Positions 15,265-24,128 of a DNA stretch of 64,000 bases are shown here, piece after piece. The notes beneath the pieces were generated by a model. That model saw nothing but the letters and a program-made list of their open reading frames with translations. It did no database searches and was not told where the DNA came from. The number at the start of each line of letters is the position of its first letter. Within the stretch, counting starts at the first letter, position 1. The position numbers and the translations under genes are program-made. Source of the DNA: an uncultured Solirubrobacterales bacterium (GTDB lineage Bacteria > Actinomycetota > Thermoleophilia > Solirubrobacterales > 70-9); NCBI GenBank assembly GCA_963805075.1, contig CAWDSZ010000001.1, forward strand, positions 72,862 through 136,861. Reading direction: 5' to 3'.

Positions 15265-16101
15265 GTGGCCGACAGCGGCAAAGATCGCATCGAGACCGGC
15301 AGCGTCGTCGTCGACGGCGTCGCGGTCTTCTTCCGGCGCATCCCGGGGGAGGGCCCTCCGGTCGTCCTCGCCCACGGCGTGCCGAACCACTCCGAGCGGT
15401 GGCTGCCCTTCCTGGGCCGCATGCGGGGCCCCGCGCTCGCCTTCGACCTGCCGGGCTTCGGGCGCTCCGCGCGGCCCGACCCGGCGAGCTTCGATTATTC
15501 AGCCCGTGGCCAGGGCGCCTTCTTCGGCACCGCGCTCGAGGCCCTCGGGGTCACCGATCACGCCCTCTGCGTCCACGACTGGGGTGCCCTGGGCCTGATC
15601 GCGGCGCAGCGTGAGCCGGCCCTGGTGAAGCGGCTCTGCATCATCAACGCGGTGCCGCTGCTGCCGGGGTATCGCTGGCATCGCACCGCCCGCGGCTGGC
15701 GCACCCCGGTGCTCGGCGAGCTCTCGCTGCGGCTGTTCACGAAGCGGACGCTGGCGCTGGGCTTGCGCGAGTCGCGGGGCGATTGGAGCGCTCCGCCCGA
15801 CGAGTTCGTGGAGATGATCCGGGAGCACCTCGACCGCGGCACCTTCGACGCGATCCTGCGGCTGTACCGCTCGGCTCCCTCCGAGGAGCTCGCGCGCCTG
15901 GGCGAGGGCCTGGGTTCGATCGAGGCCCCGGCGCTGGTGGCCTGGTCGACGAAGGACCGCTACCTGCCGCTTCGATTCGGGCGTGCCTACGCCGACGCGC
16001 TGCCGAACGCCGAGCTGCTGGAGCTGCCCGGGCTCGGGCACTGGCCATGGCTCGAGGACCCTTCGCTGGTCGATCGCGCCGTCGCCTTCCTCGAACCCTG
16101 A
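15265..16101 (+). CDS. Alpha/beta hydrolase (haloalkane dehalogenase / epoxide hydrolase-like)
   Basis: VVLAHGVPNHSERW, nucleophile elbow VHDWGALG, and C-terminal LPGLGHWPWLEDP. Confidence 0.75.
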   Translation: MADSGKDRIETGSVVVDGVAVFFRRIPGEGPPVVLAHGVPNHSERWLPFLGRMRGPALAFDLPGFGRSARPDPASFDYSARGQGAFFGTALEALGVTDHALCVHDWGALGLIAAQREPALVKRLCIINAVPLLPGYRWHRTARGWRTPVLGELSLRLFTKRTLALGLRESRGDWSAPPDEFVEMIREHLDRGTFDAILRLYRSAPSEELARLGEGLGSIEAPALVAWSTKDRYLPLRFGRAYADALPNAELLELPGLGHWPWLEDPSLVDRAVAFLEP

Positions 16102-16200: not shown

Positions 16201-16968
16201 GTGCGCGCTCTGATCGCAAGGACCGGTCGTTGGCTTCCTCAAGGATGGGGTGATGCCGGCCGCCAGGTCGGCCTCTTCGTCCTGGCCGACGTCTGCTACG
16301 AGACCGTGCGCGGGATCGCCGACGGCCAGCGCGCCGAGGCGTTCGCCAACGGCGCCTGGGTGATCGACGTCGAGGCGGCGACCGGCACCTTCTTCGAGCC
16401 GGACCTGCAGGGGCTCCTGATCGACCACCGCTGGCTGATCGACCTGGCCAACTTCTCCTACATGAACACCCACTTCGTGCTCACGACGGGGTTCCTCGTC
16501 TGGCTCTACCTCTACCGCAACGAGCACTTCTACTTCGTCCGCAACATGTTCATGGTCGCGATGGCGCTGGCCCTGGTCGGGTACACGCTGGTGCCGACCG
16601 CGCCGCCGCGCCTGATCGAGGGCTACGGGTTCGTGGACACGATCAACCAATACGCCCAGGTCACACACGACTCCGCGCTGGTCAAGATCTTCATCAACCC
16701 CTACGCCGCGATCCCCAGCATGCACTGCGCCTTCGCGCTGATGATCGGCGCGACCGGGGTCCTGGTCTCCAAGCACACCGTCAGCAAGGTCTTCTGGAGC
16801 GTCTATCCGGTGTTCGTGCTGTTCGTCGTCATCGTCACGGCCAACCACTTCTGGCTTGACGGGGCGATCGGCTGGGGTGTCGCCGGCGTCTCGGCGCTTG
16901 CAGCCGCCCAGCTGGCCCGGATGCGCCCCACCGCTTGGTCGTTCGGTCGGCGGCCGGCGACGGCTTGA
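16201..16968 (+). CDS. PAP2-superfamily membrane phosphotransferase, Aur1/Ipt1-like (paralog 1)
   Basis: Multi-pass membrane protein with NPYAAIPSMHCAF (PSxH, C2 motif) and TANHFWLDGAIG (H-x3-D, C3 motif). The pattern resembles fungal IPC synthase (PSLH .. HHYxxD). Confidence 0.65.
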   Translation: MRALIARTGRWLPQGWGDAGRQVGLFVLADVCYETVRGIADGQRAEAFANGAWVIDVEAATGTFFEPDLQGLLIDHRWLIDLANFSYMNTHFVLTTGFLVWLYLYRNEHFYFVRNMFMVAMALALVGYTLVPTAPPRLIEGYGFVDTINQYAQVTHDSALVKIFINPYAAIPSMHCAFALMIGATGVLVSKHTVSKVFWSVYPVFVLFVVIVTANHFWLDGAIGWGVAGVSALAAAQLARMRPTAWSFGRRPATA

Positions 16969-18575
16969 GCAATCGCGACCGCTTTCGCCGCTTCGCCGAG
17001 CCCGGCCTGATCGCCGCCGCGTTCGGGATCGCGTACCTGATCATGGAGCCGTCCAGCGCGGACCACGCCGCGCAGGTGTTCCGCTCGGGCCTGTTCGAGG
17101 ACGAGGGCCTGTCGGCCTGGAACAACCTCTGGTTCGGCGGCCACCACATCCCCGGCTACAGCGTCCTCTTCCCCTTCCTCGGCTCGCTGATCGGGCCCCG
17201 CGAGACCGCCGTCCTGGCGACGGTGGTCGCGGCCGTCCTCTTCGGCGCCATCGCCTACCGCCGCTGGGGCGATCGGGCCCGGCTCGGGGTGGTCTGGTTC
17301 GCGGCGGGCAGCTCGATCAACCTGTTCACGGGCCGTCTGGCTTTCGCGCTGGGGATCGCGATCGCCCTGGCGGCGGTCTTCGCCGCCCAGCGCGGCTGGC
17401 GGCCCGCCGGGGTCGTCCTCGCCGTCCTCACTCCGCTCGCGAGCCCGGTCGCCGCCCTGTTCCTGGCCTGCGCCGCCGTGGCCCACTCGGTCGCGGAGCG
17501 CAGCCGCGCGGGCATCGAGTTGGCGGTGGCGGCGCTGGGAACCGCGGTGCTGCTGGCCTTCGCCTTCCCGGAGGGGGGCACCGAGCCCTTCGTCGCCTCC
17601 AGCTTCCAGCCGGCCCTGCTGATCGCACTCGCCGTCTTCATCGCGATCCCGAGGGAGGAGAGGCTGCTCCGCTACGGGGTCGCCGCCTACGCGGCGGCGC
17701 TGGCGGGAGCCTTCCTGATCGATTCGCCGATGGGGGGGAACGCCACCCGCATGGGGGCGCTGTTCCTCGGCCCCGCCCTCGCCTTCGGGCTGTGGCGGCG
17801 ACAGAAGGTCGTGCTGGCGCTGCTCGCTCCGTTCCTCGTCTACTGGCAGTTCTCCCCGGTGGTCCGAGACCTCGAGACCGTCGTCGCCCAGCCCTCGGTG
17901 GAGTCGTCGTACTACGCGCCGGTGCGCGACTACGTCCGCGGCGTTCCGAATCACCAGCGCCATCGCGTCGAGGTGCTGCCGGCCGAGCACCACTGGGAGG
18001 CGGCGCACGTGCCCAGGGGGATCTACATCGCGCGCGGCTGGGAGCGCCAGCTCGACCGCAAGCTCAACGCCCTCTTCTATGAGGACGAGAACGGGCCCCT
18101 CACCTCGGCGGACTACAAGGTCTGGCTCGACGAGCTCGCGGTCGGCTTCGTCGCGGTTCCGAATTCCGAGCTCGACTACGCGGCCGAGGCCGAGGCGAGG
18201 CTGATCGCCGACGGGCTCCCCTACCTGAAGCAGGATTTCGTCAGCGAGGACTGGACCATCTACCGCGTCCGCGACCCCGCCCCGCTGGCGTTCGGCGCGG
18301 GCGATCGGGTCAAGCTGACCCCGCAGGGGTTCGTGCTGATCGCCGACTCGCCCGGGACGATCGTGGTCAAGGTGCGCTGGACCCCGTACTGGTCGATCGA
18401 AGAGGGGACCGGTTGCCTCGAGGAGTCCACGCGCGGCTTCACCCGCGTGATCGTGCCGGAGCAGGGGCGCCTGCGGATCGGCGTTGACTTCAGTCCGTTG
18501 CGCGCCCTCGACCGCGGCCAGCGCTGCGCCGACCATCCCCCCGTCACCAGCGGCTGGGAGGAAGCGGTCAAGTGA
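16935..18575 (+). CDS. Large polytopic membrane protein with C-terminal soluble domain (possible GT-C-fold glycosyltransferase)
   Basis: ORF 16935..18575 has roughly 9-11 hydrophobic helices, then a ~200-aa soluble C-terminus. An in-frame TTG at 16965 overlaps the upstream stop (TTGA). The family assignment is inferred from architecture only. Confidence 0.45.
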   Translation: MVVRSAAGDGLSNRDRFRRFAEPGLIAAAFGIAYLIMEPSSADHAAQVFRSGLFEDEGLSAWNNLWFGGHHIPGYSVLFPFLGSLIGPRETAVLATVVAAVLFGAIAYRRWGDRARLGVVWFAAGSSINLFTGRLAFALGIAIALAAVFAAQRGWRPAGVVLAVLTPLASPVAALFLACAAVAHSVAERSRAGIELAVAALGTAVLLAFAFPEGGTEPFVASSFQPALLIALAVFIAIPREERLLRYGVAAYAAALAGAFLIDSPMGGNATRMGALFLGPALAFGLWRRQKVVLALLAPFLVYWQFSPVVRDLETVVAQPSVESSYYAPVRDYVRGVPNHQRHRVEVLPAEHHWEAAHVPRGIYIARGWERQLDRKLNALFYEDENGPLTSADYKVWLDELAVGFVAVPNSELDYAAEAEARLIADGLPYLKQDFVSEDWTIYRVRDPAPLAFGAGDRVKLTPQGFVLIADSPGTIVVKVRWTPYWSIEEGTGCLEESTRGFTRVIVPEQGRLRIGVDFSPLRALDRGQRCADHPPVTSGWEEAVK

Positions 18576-19374
18576 GCTTCGGCCGCCCTGCGGCGGCGCC
18601 TGCTGCCGCGGGGCCCGCTGGACCTGCTCGTCCAGTTCGTGGTGATCGCGGCGGCCTACACGGCCTGGCGCTACGCGCGCGGCGCCGTCGCCCCCTCGGA
18701 CCTGTCGTCGGCCTTCGCCAGCGGCCGCGACCTGGTCTCCTTCGAGGACTCGATCGGGACGCTGATCGAGGCCGACGTGCAGAGTTGGGCCCTGGAGCGG
18801 GAGTGGACGGCCGAGCTGGCGCGCTGGGGCTACGCCAACCTCCATTTCAAGGGCAGCGTGCTGGCGCTGGCCGTGATCTTCTTCGCATATCGAGGCAGCT
18901 ACGGGTTCGTGCGTAATACGGTGATCGCGGCAATGGCCATCTCCGTCCTCTCCTACTGGCTCTATCCGGTCGCTCCGCCGCGGTTCCTCCCCGAGCTGGG
19001 GCTGGACGCCGCGACCTCGGTCACCGGCAACAACACGCTCCTGAGCAGCCCCGACGACCCCCTCTTCAACCCGGTCGCCGCGGTGCCGTCGATGCACGTC
19101 GGCCTCTCGGTGATCTTCTCCTGGTCGCTGGCGCTGCTGGTGCCCGTGGCGGCCCCTGAAGGCGGTCCTGTTCGCCTACCCCCTGCTGATGACCTACGTC
19201 GTCGTGGCGAGCGGCAACCACTACTGGATCGACGCGCTCTTCGGCCTCATCACCGCCGCGGCCGCGGCCGGGGTCGCGATGCTGCTGGCGCGGGTGAACC
19301 CGGACTGGGCCTTCGGCGCCCCGGCTGATCCGGAGCCGGCCGGCGCCACCGGGACGAGAACGGTGGCCGCGTGA
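18572..19374 (+). CDS. PAP2-superfamily membrane phosphotransferase, Aur1/Ipt1-like (paralog 2; two apparent frame changes)
   Basis: The GTG at 18572 overlaps the upstream stop (GTGA). The body is in ORF 18639..19328 ([14 protein letters not shown]) and the tail in ORF 19189..19374 ([13 protein letters not shown]). The frame changes sit at the CCC runs 18586-18588 and about 19143-19146. Confidence 0.65.
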
Positions 19375-20033
19375 ACGAGCGCCCGATGGCCACGGCCGCA
19401 GAGGAGATCTCGACGGCGATGCGCAATCGGCTGATCGAGTCCCGCCTCACCCCCAACGCGATCTCGATGGTGGGCCTGGCCGGCAACCTGGCCGCCGCGG
19501 TGCTCGTCTGGGAGGGCTACTACTTCCTCGGCGGGGTCGCCTTCATCCTCGGCTCGATCATGGACACGCTCGACGGCCGCTACGCGCGCGTCTCGGGCAA
19601 GGGGACGCTCTTCGGCGCCTTCCTCGACTCCACTCTGGACCGGGTCGAGGAGGGGATCGTGATCACCGCCGTCGCCTACCGCTTCGCCGTGACCGGCGAC
19701 GAGTTCGCGGCGGCGATGTGCGTCTTCGTGGTGCTCGGCTCGCTGATGGTCTCCTATACGCGCGCCCGGGCCGAGGCGCTGGGCGTGGAATGCAAGGTCG
19801 GTGTCGCCACGCGACCCGTCAGAGTGGTCATACTGTCCATCGGCCTCGTCTTCGCAAAAGGGGCCGGAGTCTTCGACATCGAGCTGCTGGCTCCCGCGAT
19901 CTACGCGATGGCCGTGCTCACCGCCTTCACCGTCGTGCAGCGTGTCTGGCACGTCAGAAACGCGCTGAAGGAGATGGAGAGGACCTCAGAAGGGCCCCAG
20001 ACCGGGCCGGAGGGCGCTACCGCGGACGTGTAA
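19371..20033 (+). CDS. CDP-alcohol phosphatidyltransferase (phosphatidylinositol-phosphate synthase-like)
   Basis: [30 protein letters not shown] matches D-G-x2-A-R-x8-G-x3-D-x3-D. The GTG start overlaps the upstream stop (GTGA). The gene sits immediately upstream of ino1. Confidence 0.8.
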
Positions 20034-20098
20034 CCGCAGCGCCCCGCAAGTGTGGTCTCTGGGCCAAGTCTTCGCATCCAGGAGGGTTTTTCAGCCAT

Positions 20099-21334
20099 AT
20101 GAGCACCGTCAACGGAAGGACAACCGGCGCGGCCCGCAACGGCGCCCGCGACGAGAAGGTCCGAGTCGCGATCGTCGGCGTCGGGAACTGCGCGAGCTCC
20201 TTCGTGCAGGGCGTGGAGTACTACAAGGACGCCGACCCCGCCGAACAGGTGCCGGGCTTGATGCACGTGGACCTCGGCGGCTACCACGTGAGCGACATCG
20301 AGTTCACGGCCGCCTTCGACATCGACGTCGAGAAGGTCGGCAAGGATCTCTCAGAGGCGATCTTCTCGGGCCAGAACAACACGATGAAGTTCTCCGACGT
20401 CCCCAAGCTGGGGGTGAAGGTGCACCGGGGCATGACCCACGACGGCCTCGGCAAGTACCTGAAGGAGAAGATCACCAAGGCCCCGGGCCAGACCGCCGAC
20501 ATCGTCGGCATCCTGCAGGACACGCAGACGGACGTGCTGGTCTGCTACCTGCCGGTCGGCTCGGAGCAGGCGACCAAGTGGTACGTCGAGCAGGCCCTGG
20601 CGGCCGGCGTCGGCTTCGTCAACTGCCTGCCGGTCTTCATCGCGCGCGAGGACTACTGGAACAAGCGCTTCGACGAGGCGGGCCTGCCGATCATCGGCGA
20701 CGACATCAAGTCCCAGGTGGGCGCGACGATCGTGCACCGCCAGCTCGCCAGGCTGTTCGCCGACCGCGGCGTGCGCATGGAGCGCACCAGCCAGCTCAAC
20801 GTCGGCGGCAACATGGACTTCTACAACATGCTCGAGCGCGAGCGGCTGGAGTCCAAGAAGATCTCCAAGACCAACGCGGTCACGTCGATCATGGACCACG
20901 AGCTGCCGCCCGAGGACGTCTACATCGGCCCCTCGGACTACGTGCCGTGGCTGACCGACCGCAAGTGGGCGCACATCCGCGTCGAGGGCAGGTCCTTCGG
21001 CGACGTGCCGCTCAACGTCGAGCTCAAGCTCGAGGTCTGGGACTCGCCGAACTCGGCGGGGATCGTGATCGACGCCGTTCGCATCATCAAGCTGGCGCTG
21101 AATCACGGCATCGCGGGGCAGCTGGACGGCCCCTCGAGCTATCTGATGAAGTCGCCGCACGACCAGCGGCCCGATCCGATCGCACGCGAGATGACCGAGG
21201 AGTTCATCGCCGAGCACGCCCGCCAGCGCGGCCTCTCCGCCGCCGGCAGGGGTGCCGCCGCCAAGGACGGCGCCGCGAGCAAGGGCAAGAAGGCGAAGAA
21301 GGACAAGAAGAAGGCCAAGGCCAAGTCGAAGTAG
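20099..21334 (+). CDS. ino1: myo-Inositol-1-phosphate synthase with a Lys-rich C-terminal tail
   Basis: The ATG at 20099 is 12 nt after AGGAGGG. Motifs include [18 protein letters not shown], ..[19 protein letters not shown].. and ..[11 protein letters not shown]... The last ~30 aa are [24 protein letters not shown]. Confidence 0.9.
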
Positions 21335-21388: not shown

Positions 21389-21569
21389 CGTTCCGCGCTT
21401 GGCGCCGCCCCCGGGCGAGCGCTGGATCAAGCGGCCGGCCTGGGTTACTCCTGCGCCCTCGCCGGCTGCTCGGCGGGCGCGGTGGCGGAGTGCGCGCTCG
21501 GCTCGGCTCCGGTGTCGCCGCAGCTCTGATCCGTGATCGGCGGGGCGCGGGTCGGCCTATGCTCACGGC

Positions 21570-23472
21570 GTGAGCGGCCAGCAGACACTGGCGGTCGCCC
21601 AGGTCAGCCCGCGCCTCCTGGGATCGCGCCACGAGACCGACGAGTACGTCACCCGCACCTCTGACGTGCTGGCCGAACGCGGGCACCGCGTGCTGATCGC
21701 GGCGCCCTCGGACTCCCGCACCGCGATCCGCGAGGGGCGGCGGGCGATCAAGGCCGCGGCCGACGACCCGGACTCGCTCTGGAGCGGCGAGAACCCGCGC
21801 GTGGTCGCGATCGGGCAGAGCATCCCCCTTCCCAGCGGGCCGCGCCGGCGGCCCTCGCCGATCCCGCTCGACGTCAGCAGGGCCCTGGAGCAGCTGTTCG
21901 AGCGGGTTCCCTTCGACATCGTCCACGTGCACGAGCCCTTCGCCCCCAGCCCGGGCTCGGCGGCCCTGCGCCACTCCCACTCCCTCAACGTCGCCACCTT
22001 TCACGAGCCGGCCGAAAGGGTGCTCTCGACCCAGGTGGCCCGGATGCTGGTCGAGATGTTCTTCGGGCGCATCGACGCGCGCACCGCGAGCAACGTCGCC
22101 ACCGCCGAGATGCTGGAGCAGGTTCTTCCCCGGGCCGTGGGAGGTGATCCGCGCCGGGGCCGACGTGGCCGAGCCGGCGCTGGATCCCGCGCCGCCGGGG
22201 CGGATCCGCATCGTCCACGCCGCCGAGGAGGAGCGGGGCGCCCTGCGCCTGTTCCTTCGCGCCCTGCGACGCCTGCCCGAGGAGCTGGACTGGGAGGGCG
22301 TGATCTGGTTCGACGGCCCGACCGATCCGCTGGCGCGAGTCAGCCGGAGGCTGCGCGAGCGGCTTCGGGTGGTCCGGCCGCGCGACGGGGAGCCTCCGGG
22401 CTTCATCGCCGGAGCCGACATCGTCTGCCTGGCCTCGGGAGGGGTGCGGACGGCGCCCGGGGTGGCGCGCGAAGCGCTCGCCGCCGGCGCGGTGCCGGTC
22501 GTCTCCGACCTCGAGCTGTACCGCGAGCTGGTCGGTGACGGCGAGCGCGGGCTGCTGTTCCCGCTCGGGGACGCGCTCACGCTGGCCGCCCAGCTGGAGC
22601 GCCTCTGCACCGATTCGGAGCTGCGCCGCGGGCTCGGCGCCAAGGGTCGTTCTGGGGGGGAGGGGCGCGGCTGGCCGGAGGTCACCGACGAGCTCGAGGG
22701 CGTCTACAGGCGCCTGGTCGCCCGCCGCCACGACCCGGCGGGGGACCCCGTCGTCCGCGGCCGCCTCGACGGTCGCCCCTACATCCATTGCGACCTGCAC
22801 ATGCACACCGACCACTCCCCCGACTGCGCCACCCCGGTCGAGGTGCTGCTGGCCACGGCCAAGGAGCGCGGCCTGGGGGCGATCGCGATCACCGACCACA
22901 ACGAGGTGTCGGGGGCACTCGAGGCCCGCGAGCTGTCCGAGCGCACCGGCGGCGTCAAGGTGATCGTGGCGGAGGAGGTGAAGACGGCCCACCAGGGCGA
23001 GGTGATCGGCCTCTTCATCGAGGAGAAGATCGAGCGGGGGATGTCGCTGGCCGAGACGATCGCCGAGATCAAGCGCCAGGGCGGGCTGGTCTACGTGCCC
23101 CACCCGTTCGACCGCCTGCACTCGGTCCCGGACTACGAGCACCTGCTGGAGGTGGTCGAGCAGATCGACATCCTCGAGGTCTTCAACCCCCGGATCGCGA
23201 TCGACTCCTTCAACGAGGAGGCGGTGAGGTTCGCGCGCAAGTACGACATCGTCCCCGGCGCCGGCTCGGACAGCCATGTGGCCCAGGGACTGGGCAGCGT
23301 CAAGATCCGGCTGCAAGATTTCGAGGGGCCGGAGGAGTTCCTGGAGTCGATGCGCGCCGCGGACATCGTCCGCAAGCACAAGAACCTGATCTACGTCCAG
23401 GCGCTGAAGTTCCTGCAGACCAGCGGGGGCCGGGGCGGCCGCGCTCTGGCGGCGCGCTCAGGCAAGAGTTGA
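21570..23472 (+). CDS. GT4-family glycosyltransferase fused to a C-terminal PHP phosphoesterase domain (one frame change near 22121)
   Basis: The GT-B N-half is in ORF 21570..22538 (..RVLIAAPSD.., VHVHEPFAP). The rest is in ORF 22144..23472: FPGPWEVIRAGADV, ..APGVAREALAAGAVPVVSD.., then the PHP motifs IHCDLHMHTDHSPDC, AITDHN, YVPHPFD and GAGSDSH. There is no stop between the two domains. Confidence 0.75.
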
Positions 23473-24128
23473 TGCACCCGCAAGGGTCCGGGGCCGCGCC
23501 GAAGAAGAGGCAGGCAGCCGTGCCACCGACCACCGACGACGAGATCCGCGAGAAGTACCTGGAGCGGGCGATACGCGAGCTGAACGACCTGGGCCGGGAC
23601 CTGGCCACCTGCGAGCGTTGCCCGCGCGGCAACGTGATGCCGGTGCAGGGCTCGGGCCATCCCCAGGCTGACATCTTCATGCTCAAGCACACGGCGACGC
23701 CGGCGGAGATCGAGGAGGGGGTCGCGTTCTACGGCCGCGCCGGCAACGCCCTGATGAAGAGCTTCAAGCGGCTCTCGATCGACCCGATCGTGGTCTTCGG
23801 GACGCTCTGCGTCAAGTGCCCCCTGACCGATCCCACCGAAGCCGCCGACCCCTGCGTCGAGCGGATCGCCGAGGAGATCGCGATCGTGCAGCCCCGGATC
23901 GTGGTGGTGATGGGACTCGAGGCCCTCGACGTCCTCAACGAGCTCGAGCTGCCGCTGGCCGACGAGATCGAGCCGCTCGAGGGCGAGGTGCAGCGGCTGA
24001 CGCCGACGATCGACGCGCTGTTCGTCCCCGACATCGACGATTCGCTGGACGAGCAGAGCGCCAAGCAGCGCTTCTGGTCCTCGTTCCGGTCGCTCGGGGA
24101 CTGGTACGACAAGCTGCCGCCGTACTGA
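23472..24128 (+). CDS. Uracil-DNA glycosylase superfamily protein (family 4-like Fe-S cysteines, non-canonical catalytic motifs)
   Basis: The ATG overlaps the upstream stop (TGATG). It has CERCPRG and ..LCVKCP..ADPC cysteines and GRAGNAL. FMLKHTATP replaces the usual GEAPG, and FVPD replaces HPS. Confidence 0.6.
   Translation: MHPQGSGAAPKKRQAAVPPTTDDEIREKYLERAIRELNDLGRDLATCERCPRGNVMPVQGSGHPQADIFMLKHTATPAEIEEGVAFYGRAGNALMKSFKRLSIDPIVVFGTLCVKCPLTDPTEAADPCVERIAEEIAIVQPRIVVVMGLEALDVLNELELPLADEIEPLEGEVQRLTPTIDALFVPDIDDSLDEQSAKQRFWSSFRSLGDWYDKLPPY

Follow-up and report, generated by a model that had tools for sequence, protein, structure and literature searches.

Bacterial synthesis of phosphatidylinositol (PI) runs via PIP, and PI and the PI mannosides (PIM) are essential and drug-relevant in mycobacteria. 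Genetic evidence for the removal of phosphate from PIP exists for Bacteroides alone, in which a PgpA-family enzyme does this work (PMC9246714). An earlier note on the DNA considered here held that the corresponding phosphatase is not firmly assigned in actinobacteria, and a preprint indeed still describes the actinobacterial PIP phosphatase as unidentified (bioRxiv 10.64898/2026.07.15.738315). The question raised by this locus, which comes from a soil actinobacterium of the class Thermoleophilia, is what is done by a protein that joins a GT4 glycosyltransferase (GT) to a PHP phosphoesterase and is encoded just after a PIP synthase and ino1. The answer that we favour, at about an even chance, is that the PHP domain acts as a PIP phosphatase and that a domain derived from the mannosyltransferase PimA, no longer catalytic, keeps it at its lipid substrate.

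In the window (the whole 64-kb stretch of DNA that was analysed), the gene is split into two open reading frames, 21570-22538 and 22144-23472, which are both on the + strand and overlap in different frames. Dropping one base of GAGCAGGTTC (A22120, G22121 or G22122) gives a 633-aa protein of GT4 plus PHP, the single frame that the earlier note had read, and across the junction LE[QR]FFPG this protein shows no gap against intact homologues at 77-89% identity. The possibility that relatives lack the fusion can be set aside, as there are thousands of intact Thermoleophilia homologues of 575-660 aa that align without gaps; the fusion is real and ancient. The earlier note had placed an extra G at about 22121. 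A single extra base at 22120-22122 stands, and DNA alignment with the closest relative (L001) likewise gives one extra base in the window, but it is the removal of A22120 that brings back the consensus Arg, whereas removal of a G gives Gln. The break does not coincide with the GT/PHP junction but falls within the N-terminal half of the GT part; it has no slippery site and is common to no relative. Because the window and L001 proteins differ by four frameshifts over 20 neighbouring genes, an assembly error is much likelier than a pseudogene, and the split is almost certainly such an error. The other frameshifts fall in the PAP2_3 gene (at about 19141) and in the gene for a 399-aa protein (at about 32677 and 33440); that the extra base is one of several was missed by the earlier note. 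A programmed frameshift or a pseudogene is rejected on the strength of the missing slippery site, the intact relatives and the three further frameshifts nearby. In the same way, three short PHP-only matches on very long contigs (P0394, P0444 and P0479) were not accepted as standalone PHP proteins and are rather frameshift-split fusions, because their clusters hold members of 627-668 aa.

Pfam matches that each exceed their gathering cut-off divide the repaired protein into Glyco_transf_4 (residues 26-200), Glycos_transf_1/Glyco_trans_1_4 (221-360), PHP (408-494) and PHP_C (547-597). On the + strand, the PimA-like N-terminal Rossmann domain of the GT-B fold occupies 21570..22158 (residues 1-196, from Glyco_transf_4 and the PimA alignment) and holds the 22120..22122 insertion. 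It is followed by the C-terminal Rossmann domain, a degenerate sugar-donor domain (22159..22653, residues 197-361, Glycos_transf_1 at 39 bits), and by the last GT-B helix, folded back against the N-terminal domain, with a linker (22654..22779, residues 362-403, AlphaFold2 helices 368-384 and 393-399). The PHP plus PHP_C phosphoesterase domain (22780..23370, residues 404-600, PF02811 and PF13263) and a conserved basic amphipathic C-terminal tail with the stop codon (KNLIYVQALKFLQTSGGRGGR..., 23371..23472) complete the protein.

The affinity of the GT part is clear. It has PF13439 and PF00534 above cut-off and the two Rossmann domains of a GT-B fold, and a phmmer search against PDB finds PimA at E 3.5e-23 (85 bits), the next GT4 at E 3e-4 and sucrose-phosphate synthase weakly at E 1e-3, while MshA and PimB' are absent among the matches (E <= 1). 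For comparison, true PimA scores only 64-67 bits against PimB', sucrose-phosphate synthase and MshA. An AlphaFold2 model from 9 close homologues was unusable (pLDDT 51); rebuilt with 58 diverse sequences, it reached pLDDT 86.8 and pTM 0.86, and its best Foldseek match is again PimA (4n9w, 2gej; E 6e-20, TM 0.79-0.81, 24-25% identity), other GT4s lying at TM of about 0.7 and 15-20% identity. The GT part is thus placed with PimA, one of the affinities that had been proposed for it, and not with exopolysaccharide GT4s, MshA, PimB' or sucrose-phosphate synthase.

What has been lost is the donor site. Residue roles were taken from PMC9202250 and mapped onto 40 non-redundant family members, with the PimA sequence verified against 4n9w. 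At the donor phosphate contacts G15, G16, R196 and K202 of PimA the window has H, E, A and G, and within the family Gly is found at G15/G16 in 2-5 of 41 sequences, Arg at R196 in 5 of 41 and Lys at K202 in 3 of 41. In place of E274 the window has Arg, and 24 of 41 members have a deletion there; E282 survives in the window, with Glu at this position in 27 of 41 and Lys in a sister clade of about 80% identity. The EX7E motif (E274 plus E282) is absent from the window protein. Because G15/G16, R196, K202 and E274 are replaced, all three beta-phosphate contacts and the mannose-binding Glu are missing, the latter having been reported as essential in PimA (PMC9202250). Acceptor-side residues persist (H118 in 32 of 41, R201 in 34 of 41, E95 as E or D in 39 of 41), and the HVHEP..PS and ATFH motifs of the N-terminal GT domain are conserved; the basic amphipathic helix of PimA, 77-RKVKK-81, is not conserved in the family. 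The N-terminal Rossmann domain is the acceptor- and membrane-binding half in PimA, and bacterial PIP bears its phosphate at O3 of inositol. Docking has set the inositol O3 against R201 (PMC9202250). The GT part descends from PimA and, judged by its residues, most likely no longer transfers sugar.

Relatives carry the loss further. In 14 related loci, whose PHP domains are 66-75% identical to that of the window, residues 1-196 are kept and about 197-360, the donor domain, are deleted, the last GT-B helix and linker (362-403) being retained. In one lineage (L093) the order PIPS-ino1-PHP is found with the GT part wholly absent; for another locus, L094 (P0390), the contig is too short for a reading of the neighbourhood. 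Two distant members (P0374 and P0386) keep EX7E and the RKG loop, with 32-34% identity to full-length PimA. These sequences suggest a decay series in nature, from apparently intact (P0374/P0386) through donor site lost (window) and donor domain deleted to GT absent.

The PHP domain has been conserved, evolving at roughly half the rate of the GT part (49-56% vs 27-33% identity at equal divergence). PF02811 and PF13263 match it at 48 and 39 bits, and all four motifs claimed for it earlier, IHCDLHMHTDHSPDC, AITDHN, YVPHPFD and GAGSDSH, are found in the window. Its nine metal ligands (H410, H412, D418, H443, E469, H511, H517, D567 and H569) are complete, and they are invariant in alignments of 16-58 divergent sequences. 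In the tail, Y608, L612 and K613 are invariant, and AlphaFold2 gives a helix at 606-618, with low confidence after it. The domain is accordingly predicted to be the catalytic part of the protein, a metal-dependent phosphoesterase. We know of no PHP enzyme that acts on a lipid, and a literature search for PHP domains together with PimA, PHP_C (PF13263) or inositol gave no relevant paper.

Upstream of the gene, on the + strand, lie genes for a PAP2_3 (AUR1-like) membrane protein (18588..19371, the frameshifted gene mentioned above), directly followed by a CDP-alcohol phosphatidyltransferase of the PIP-synthase type (19419..20033, PF01066) and by ino1, encoding myo-inositol-1-phosphate synthase with a Lys-rich C-terminal tail (20093..21334, PF01658). 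Among NCBIfam models the PIP-synthase-type gene best matches archaetidylinositol-phosphate synthase (140 bits) and PIP synthase (133 bits), without reaching the cut-off of either, and ino1 scores 554 bits against TIGR03450, whose cut-off is 638. The end of ino1 at 21334 is 235 nt upstream of the GT-PHP gene, and the position after ino1 that had been pointed out holds well beyond the window: among loci that were all chosen for carrying the PHP gene, 74 of 75 have PIP synthase and ino1 upstream in the same orientation, in members down to 33-40% identity. The adjacency of ino1 is by itself weak evidence, however, because synteny across the class extends to the region as a whole, with such unrelated genes as dnaK-grpE-dnaJ upstream and a TRAM methyltransferase downstream. 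The junction on the other side is tighter. A UDG-like gene (23520..24128, +, PF03167) begins 47 nt downstream of the GT-PHP gene. All 82 loci have it downstream in the same orientation; the median gap is 69 nt and a single gap exceeds 500 nt, as against 21 of 74 for ino1. The UDG-like gene is there too in L084, which has no PIPS-ino1 upstream, and in the GT-less L093. This gene, which the earlier note missed, is probably co-transcribed with the GT-PHP gene.

The GT-PHP gene also seems to have a promoter of its own. A -10-like hexamer, TATGCT (21558..21563, +), ends 6 nt before the GTG start at 21570, as the earlier note had stated, and an alignment of nine relatives shows conserved upstream columns in the TA..CT hexamer and the GTG alone. 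By the criterion for leaderless genes (a TANNNT hexamer that ends some 6-8 nt short of the start codon, Shine-Dalgarno spacing being absent), an in-frame box stands 6-8 nt ahead of the start codon in 72 of 84 loci, compared with 1 of 84 in an out-of-frame control. This conservation supports a leaderless transcript and a -10 box positioned for it. A scan for the sigma-70 consensus found no promoter upstream of the gene, which is to be expected in a GC-rich actinobacterium; the TANNNT test fits better.

We suggest the following scheme. The PIP synthase encoded two genes upstream would use CDP-diacylglycerol, together with the inositol phosphate that ino1 provides, to make PIP, and the PHP domain would remove the phosphate of the inositol ring to give PI. 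The PimA-derived part, its GDP-mannose site lost, would recognise the membrane and the PI headgroup and so hold the phosphatase at its lipid substrate. The protein would be made from a leaderless mRNA, with the UDG-like gene probably on the same transcript. Both PIP as the substrate and the tethering role are what we infer from the analysis as a whole. These bacteria need such a step: Conexibacter has PI as its main polar lipid (PMC3035278), and PI and PIM are reported in Solirubrobacter, PIM by TLC in Solirubrobacter deserti (PMC10722151). A wider version, to which we give somewhat less than an even chance, is that this PHP protein is the PIP phosphatase of the Thermoleophilia, that it would be the first PHP enzyme known to act on a membrane lipid and a non-homologous replacement of the PgpA-type enzyme of Bacteroides, that its PimA partner has turned into a targeting module, and that the ancestral fusion channelled PIP to PI and on to PIM1.

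There is a real rival to PIP as the substrate. The PHP domain may instead act on nucleotides or nucleic-acid ends (pAp, oligonucleotides, 3'-phosphate or AP sites) together with the UDG-like protein, the ino1 neighbourhood being merely inherited gene order. The constant presence of the UDG-like gene, including in L084 and L093, speaks for this reading, and the leaderless-type promoter would drive GT-PHP and UDG together. In the Gaiellales, however, UDG is set apart by two opposite-strand genes and ino1 is 8 nt away, and the UDG-like protein, though family-4-like (4zbx, E 9e-8), has LKHTAT in place of the GEAPG catalytic motif, which leaves its own role uncertain. The closest solved relatives of the PHP domain in a profile search of PDB are TrpH-type (3e0f at 3.6e-11, RNase AM at 8e-10 and Cv1693 at 1e-5). 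These relatives act on nucleotides or oligonucleotides, a point missed by the earlier note. Against a transfer of their function, the TrpH/RNase AM equivalogs of NCBIfam score only 38 bits (NF041577, cut-off 400) and 35 bits (NF047791, cut-off 375), and the TrpH-type insertion of about 100 residues between motifs III and IV is absent, since residues 83-184 of 3e0f align with profile positions 81-95. Standalone PHP proteins of the nearest unfused sister subfamily (P0408 and P0426) are encoded directly after xseA-xseB (exonuclease VII), with their genes overlapping the xseB stop codon in two lineages, but they are only 34-41% identical to the window PHP, whereas all fused forms reach at least 49%; they count as evidence for the nucleotide reading, not as orthologues. 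A nucleic-acid substrate would also leave unexplained why the partner came from PimA and why its PI- and membrane-binding half has been retained. Taken together, we regard a nucleotide or DNA-end substrate as unlikely.

We now return to PIP as the substrate and ask whether a neighbour, rather than the PHP domain, dephosphorylates it. The PAP2_3 protein or an epoxide-hydrolase-like alpha/beta hydrolase could be the PIP phosphatase, with PHP cleaving another phosphoester, e.g., phosphatidylglycerophosphate, a soluble inositol phosphate or a phosphorylated glyco-inositol intermediate. The PAP2 superfamily includes lipid phosphate phosphatases, and in 74 of 87 loci PAP2_3 is the gene immediately preceding PIP synthase. 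It is missing there in the other 13, L093 among them, and because it belongs to the AUR1/IPC-synthase branch and has as its sole NCBIfam match, a weak one, phosphoinositol dihydroceramide synthase (E 4e-4), it looks like a transferase rather than a phosphatase; PDB sequences gave no useful match to it. We dropped the argument that PHP is a more faithful companion of PIP synthase than PAP2_3 is, the loci all having been chosen for the PHP gene. The alpha/beta hydrolase heads the cluster in most Solirubrobacterales loci and belongs, broadly speaking, to the family of EphE, which is the candidate in mycobacteria, but unlike EphE it keeps its Asp nucleophile (HDWG). As for the alternative substrates, a phosphatase for soluble inositol phosphate would draw on the very compound that PIP synthase consumes. 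An assignment of PIP to either neighbour appears improbable to us.

The earlier note had proposed a bifunctional enzyme that couples glycosylation with dephosphorylation. In this form the GT part would be an active PI or PIP mannosyltransferase, the local PimA, with PHP removing the inositol phosphate before or after glycosylation. PimA is indeed the closest relative of the GT part, neither the 64-kb window nor any of the loci examined showed a second PimA-like gene, although a separate PimA may lie elsewhere in these genomes, and PIM, as noted, is reported in S. deserti. The window protein keeps E282 and passes Pfam Glycos_transf_1, and with EX7E and the RKG loop intact in P0374 and P0386 the ancestral fusion may have been bifunctional. 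The coupling finds no support in the present-day protein, because the donor residues of PimA are lost family-wide and close relatives drop the donor domain, or the entire GT part, and keep PHP. Even the retained E282 gives way to Lys in the sister clade, and the GT part evolves twice as fast as PHP. We consider an active mannosyltransferase in the window doubtful. The further suggestion of MshA2, the GlcNAc-Ins-P phosphatase of mycothiol synthesis, finds no support either, as the GT part is not MshA-like: it reaches 21.8 bits with TIGR03449, where the cut-off is 462.5, and this match covers just the C-terminal 87 residues, and MshA does not appear among its PDB matches.

This fusion after PIP synthase and ino1 is a concrete, soluble candidate for the long-sought actinobacterial enzyme, and if the PHP domain is indeed the PIP phosphatase, it would lend independent support to a PIP phosphatase that works in physical contact with PimA in actinobacteria. 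The family is in addition a clear natural series of a glycosyltransferase decaying into a non-catalytic partner domain. If the substrate is a nucleotide or a DNA end, the protein is an odd domain architecture of local interest only.

Finally, the protein can be compared with known systems. PimA of M. smegmatis (the GDP-mannose-dependent PI alpha-1,2-mannosyltransferase of family GT4, 2GEJ/4N9W) shares its GT-B fold and is the best match in sequence and structure by a clear margin; HxHEP..PS, ATFH (H118) and R201 are conserved in the window family, and pimA adjoins pgsA1 much as the fusion lies in a PI-synthesis cluster. It differs in that the window protein lacks the Gly-Gly loop, R196, K202 and E274, is fused to PHP and has a donor domain that is dispensable in relatives. 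With the COG0613/TrpH-type enzymes (RNase AM 7UG9, Cv1693 2YB1, 3E0F) it has in common PHP motifs I-V and the type of metal-ligand set, with Asp in third position, and they are its best solved relatives (E 1e-11 to 1e-5). The similarity is mostly in the first 80 or so residues, however, and the window protein has no insertion of about 100 residues, has PHP_C and a conserved basic C-terminal helix, stands in another genomic and domain context, and scores about ten times under the NCBIfam equivalog cut-offs. BT_1525 of Bacteroides thetaiotaomicron, a PgpA-family enzyme, carries out the reaction proposed here, PIP to PI, and its cluster consists of AUR1-like, PIP synthase, PgpA-type PIP phosphatase and MIPS genes (PMC9246714), where the window has PAP2_3 (AUR1-like), PIP synthase, MIPS and PHP, an analogy that speaks for the reading favoured here. 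PgpA and PHP are unrelated families, with no Pfam or NCBIfam match to PgpA in the window protein, and BT_1525 is backed by genetic evidence, whereas the protein here is a candidate. Fusions of sucrose-phosphate synthase with SPP also join a GT4 enzyme to a phosphatase of the same pathway, but there the phosphatase is of the HAD type and the GT is active, and here a PHP domain is joined to an inactive-looking GT. Closest in concept is the predicted PimA-ML0451c-EphE complex of mycobacteria, in which EphE has been proposed as the PIP phosphatase (bioRxiv 10.64898/2026.07.15.738315). In both systems a candidate PIP-dephosphorylating hydrolase is physically tied to PimA at the membrane, non-covalently and by an alpha/beta hydrolase without its nucleophile in the one, and by covalent fusion to a PHP domain in the other, and both are candidates.

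We propose, at an even chance of being right, that the PHP domain of the gene following ino1 is a phosphatidylinositol phosphate (PIP) phosphatase: the neighbouring synthase would make PIP, the PHP domain would take the phosphate off it, and the PimA-derived glycosyltransferase (GT) part, now non-catalytic, would recognise the PI headgroup and the membrane.

In the window (G+C, 70.4%) the gene appears as two ORFs that overlap in different frames (21570-22538 and 22144-23472, +), the first beginning 235 nt after ino1 (20093-21334, +). Removal of one base from GAGCAGGTTC (22120-22122) gives a single 633-aa protein, much as the earlier note had read it, with one frame apart from an extra base at about 22121. 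The repaired protein exceeds the Pfam gathering scores for Glyco_transf_4, Glycos_transf_1, PHP and PHP_C, contains all four PHP motifs that the note had picked out, and aligns over its full length without gaps to homologues 77-89% identical, junction LE[QR]FFPG included. The break lies within the N-terminal GT half, not at the GT/PHP boundary, and the closest relative (L001) has exactly one base fewer there. Compared with L001 proteins, 20 neighbouring genes of the window contain four frame changes, in the PAP2_3 gene (19141-19145), the GT-PHP gene (22120-22122) and a 399-aa gene (at about 32677 and 33440). This pattern favours a long-read assembly over gene decay. The GT-PHP frameshift is probably a local sequence error and the assembly is probably indel-prone and of long-read origin, so that other split ORFs in the window should not be taken as pseudogenes. 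The C-terminus of the GT-PHP protein is basic (a GGRGGR/KS tail), as is the Lys-rich tail of the ino1 product, which lies outside the family-model match (21254-21334).

Database searches portray the fusion as a family both old and large. Among 5.8 billion proteins, at least 8000 matched, the best 120 of which are all 617-665 aa with an essentially identical Pfam domain set; the source-named entries among these 120 are Solirubrobacterales MAGs. An exhaustive search of cluster representatives yielded 453 below E 1e-30, with full-length fusions down to 33-40% identity. Relatives are encoded by 569 stretches in GTDB species representatives, the best 80 being all Thermoleophilia (Solirubrobacterales, Thermoleophilaceae, Paraconexibacteraceae, Baekduia), and a second search added Gaiellales. 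We found only generic database annotation of the architecture and no paper describing it; it is a new combination of known parts, a PHP phosphoesterase and a GT4 domain.

The survey of neighbours bore out the association with inositol genes that the earlier note had envisaged. Where the sequence extends 2.5 kb or more upstream of the fusion gene, ino1 lies on that side and on the same strand in 74 of 75 loci, accompanied by PIP synthase in essentially all 74, counts to be read knowing that the region is syntenic across lineages, unrelated genes included, and that every locus was selected for presence of the PHP gene. The placement recurs in Gaiellales (8-nt gap to ino1), in a 705-aa member of 34% identity and, with a TetR gene interposed, in a 590-aa group; a single locus, L084, is without adjacent PIPS-ino1. 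In the 575-590-aa subgroup the TetR-family regulator is divergent and immediately 5′ of the GT-PHP gene (L084, 9359-9958; L087, 9387-9983; both −).

In the window the synthase is a CDP-alcohol phosphatidyltransferase (19419-20033, +); in NCBIfam it matches archaetidylinositol-phosphate synthase and PIP synthase best. It is possible, though improbable, that the PIP phosphatase is another enzyme of the cluster and that the PHP domain acts on a different phosphoester. One candidate is the PAP2_3 protein (18588-19371, +; Pfam), whose gene adjoins that of PIP synthase on the upstream side in 74 of 87 loci; however, NCBIfam gives it a single, weak match, to phosphoinositol dihydroceramide synthase, in keeping with an AUR1-like member of the PAP2 superfamily. 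The other is an alpha/beta hydrolase, whose gene comes first in the inositol-lipid cluster of most Solirubrobacterales loci. According to a July 2026 preprint (10.64898/2026.07.15.738315), no PIP phosphatase has yet been identified in mycobacteria, and EphE, an alpha/beta hydrolase with a predicted PimA complex, is proposed for the role. The hydrolase here belongs to the same broad family, but unlike EphE it retains its nucleophile (HGxP motif; Asp in HDWG). It is haloalkane-dehalogenase/epoxide-hydrolase-like and is found at 15289-16095 (+) in the window and 3754-4587 in L001. Between it and the synthase gene, a protein of about 550 aa (16950-18572, +), with no Pfam or NCBIfam match, is encoded between two paralogous PAP2_3 (AUR1-like) genes (16201-16956 and 18588-19371, +), an order kept in many Solirubrobacterales loci; this arrangement suggests further inositol-phosphoryl transfer chemistry beyond PI.

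On the downstream side, every one of 82 loci has a UDG-like gene in the same orientation (median gap, 69 nt); one gap is over 500 nt, versus 21 of 74 for ino1. The leaderless geometry recognised in the earlier note, TATGCT (21558-21563) followed after 6 nt by the GTG start, proved to be widespread: in nine relatives the only conserved upstream columns are a TA..CT hexamer and the GTG, and 72 of 84 loci have an in-frame TANNNT 6-8 nt upstream of the start codon, whereas out of frame, as a control, 1 of 84 does. Because this box is conserved, the GT-PHP gene probably opens a leaderless transcript continuing into the UDG-like gene. Co-transcription with ino1 is therefore not required, except in Gaiellales, where the box is absent. 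The UDG-superfamily protein itself (23520-24128, +) resembles family 4 (4zbx, E 9e-8). It has retained Cys residues where the family-4 Fe-S cluster could be bound, but has LKHT(A/P)T in place of the catalytic GE(A/G)PG motif; it may represent a UDG variant not yet characterised, or have no glycosylase activity.

Such a partner would suit a nucleotide or DNA-end phosphoesterase, as would the nearest relatives of the PHP domain. In alignments this domain is the constant part of the family: its nine metal ligands are complete and invariant, and at equal divergence it retains 49-56% identity versus 27-33% for the GT part. TrpH-type enzymes head the PDB profile search (3e0f, 3.6e-11; RNase AM, 8e-10; TM0559; Cv1693, 1e-5), and the true standalone relatives (clusters P0408 and P0426; 220-228 aa), in two lineages, lie directly downstream of xseA-xseB. 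Yet the TrpH-type match is confined mostly to the first ~80 residues and the ~100-residue insertion of these best solved relatives is not shared; the pAp phosphatase and RNase RNM NCBIfam equivalogs score about tenfold under their cut-offs; and the standalone proteins share only 34-41% identity with the window domain and have different C-terminal halves. We consider a DNA-end or nucleotide role unlikely. On metagenome and MAG contigs (L088-L092), the standalone PHP+PHP_C gene begins on the xseB stop codon or no more than 1 nt from it, forming xseA-xseB-PHP operons in the two lineages, one of which carries FhaA/FHA/FtsW genes, typical of Actinomycetota; this sister subfamily may be exonuclease VII partners.

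Sequence and predicted fold identify the GT part as a PimA descendant with its donor site lost. Of the GT4 enzymes weighed in the earlier note (PimA, MshA, PimB and sucrose-phosphate synthase), PimA is the one it resembles: M. smegmatis PimA matched at E 3.5e-23 (85 bits, residues 78-380) in a PDB sequence search, with the second-best GT4 at E 3e-4, whereas PimA itself reaches only 64-67 bits against PimB′, sucrose-phosphate synthase and MshA. MshA and PimB′ are absent from the PDB sequence matches, and the MshA equivalog model gives 21.8 bits against a cut-off of 462.5, which argues against the MshA2 step. With an AlphaFold2 model (58-sequence alignment; pLDDT 86.8, pTM 0.86), Foldseek ranks PimA first (E 6e-20, TM 0.79-0.81, 24-25% identity), ahead of BshA, MshA and PglA (TM ~0.7, 15-20%).

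The GDP-mannose-binding residues of PimA (PMC9202250) were mapped, once the PimA sequence had been checked against 4n9w, in 41 sequences: the window protein and 40 non-redundant family members. G15/G16 are His/Glu in the window (Gly in 2-5 of 41), R196 is Ala (Arg in 5), K202 is Gly (Lys in 3) and E274 is Arg (deleted in 24); E282 is Glu in the window and in 27 of 41, and Lys in a clade ~80% identical to the window. Acceptor-side residues of PimA are largely kept: H118 in 32, R201 in 34 and E95 (Glu or Asp) in 39 of 41, with the HxHEP..PS and ATFH motifs likewise kept. Inositol O3 has been docked against R201 (PMC9202250).

Starting from a short homologue, a scan of metagenomes gave 80 loci, classed by the extension before the PHP motif: ~0 aa (L093, PIPS-ino1-PHP-UDG, with only 31 nt from ino1 to PHP), ~185 aa (seven loci), ~232-259 aa (seven loci), ~355-367 aa (Gaiellales type, C-terminal GT domain undetected by Pfam) and ~390-460 aa (full length). 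The short forms match window residues 1-196 and 360-619, thus retaining the last helix and the N-terminal half (the PI- and membrane-binding half of PimA); the donor Rossmann domain is entirely missing, and over the PHP domain they share 66-75% identity with the window protein. From these natural deletions, most of the family most likely has no GT activity. The active bifunctional enzyme of the earlier note, coupling glycosylation of an inositol-phosphate substrate to phosphate removal, is accordingly doubtful, given the replaced donor residues and deleted donor domain, although two homologues from public read assemblies, P0374 (L085, 402-2294) and P0386 (L086, 54-1955), keep EX7E and the RKG loop with 32-34% full-length identity to PimA, so that the ancestral fusion may have been an active PimA and these two would be the likeliest members to be truly bifunctional PimA-PHP enzymes.

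We favour the PIP-phosphatase model because the PimA ancestry is specific, the acceptor half is selectively retained, the PHP site is complete and slowly evolving, the gene follows PIPS-ino1 in divergent lineages, a Bacteroides cluster is analogous, and PI-rich bacteria need such an enzyme. Conexibacter has PI as its main polar lipid (PMC3035278), and Solirubrobacter deserti is reported to contain both PI and PI mannosides (PMC10722151). Our literature search found no paper connecting PHP domains to PimA or inositol lipids; the fusion bears on the identity of the PIP phosphatase, and the model is directly testable. In Bacteroides, the PIP phosphatase is BT_1525, of the PgpA family, clustered with an AUR1-like PI-DHC synthase, PIP synthase and MIPS (PMC9246714). 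PIP synthase, MIPS and an AUR1-like protein are thus common to both clusters, whereas the phosphatase is PgpA there and the candidate here is a PHP domain.
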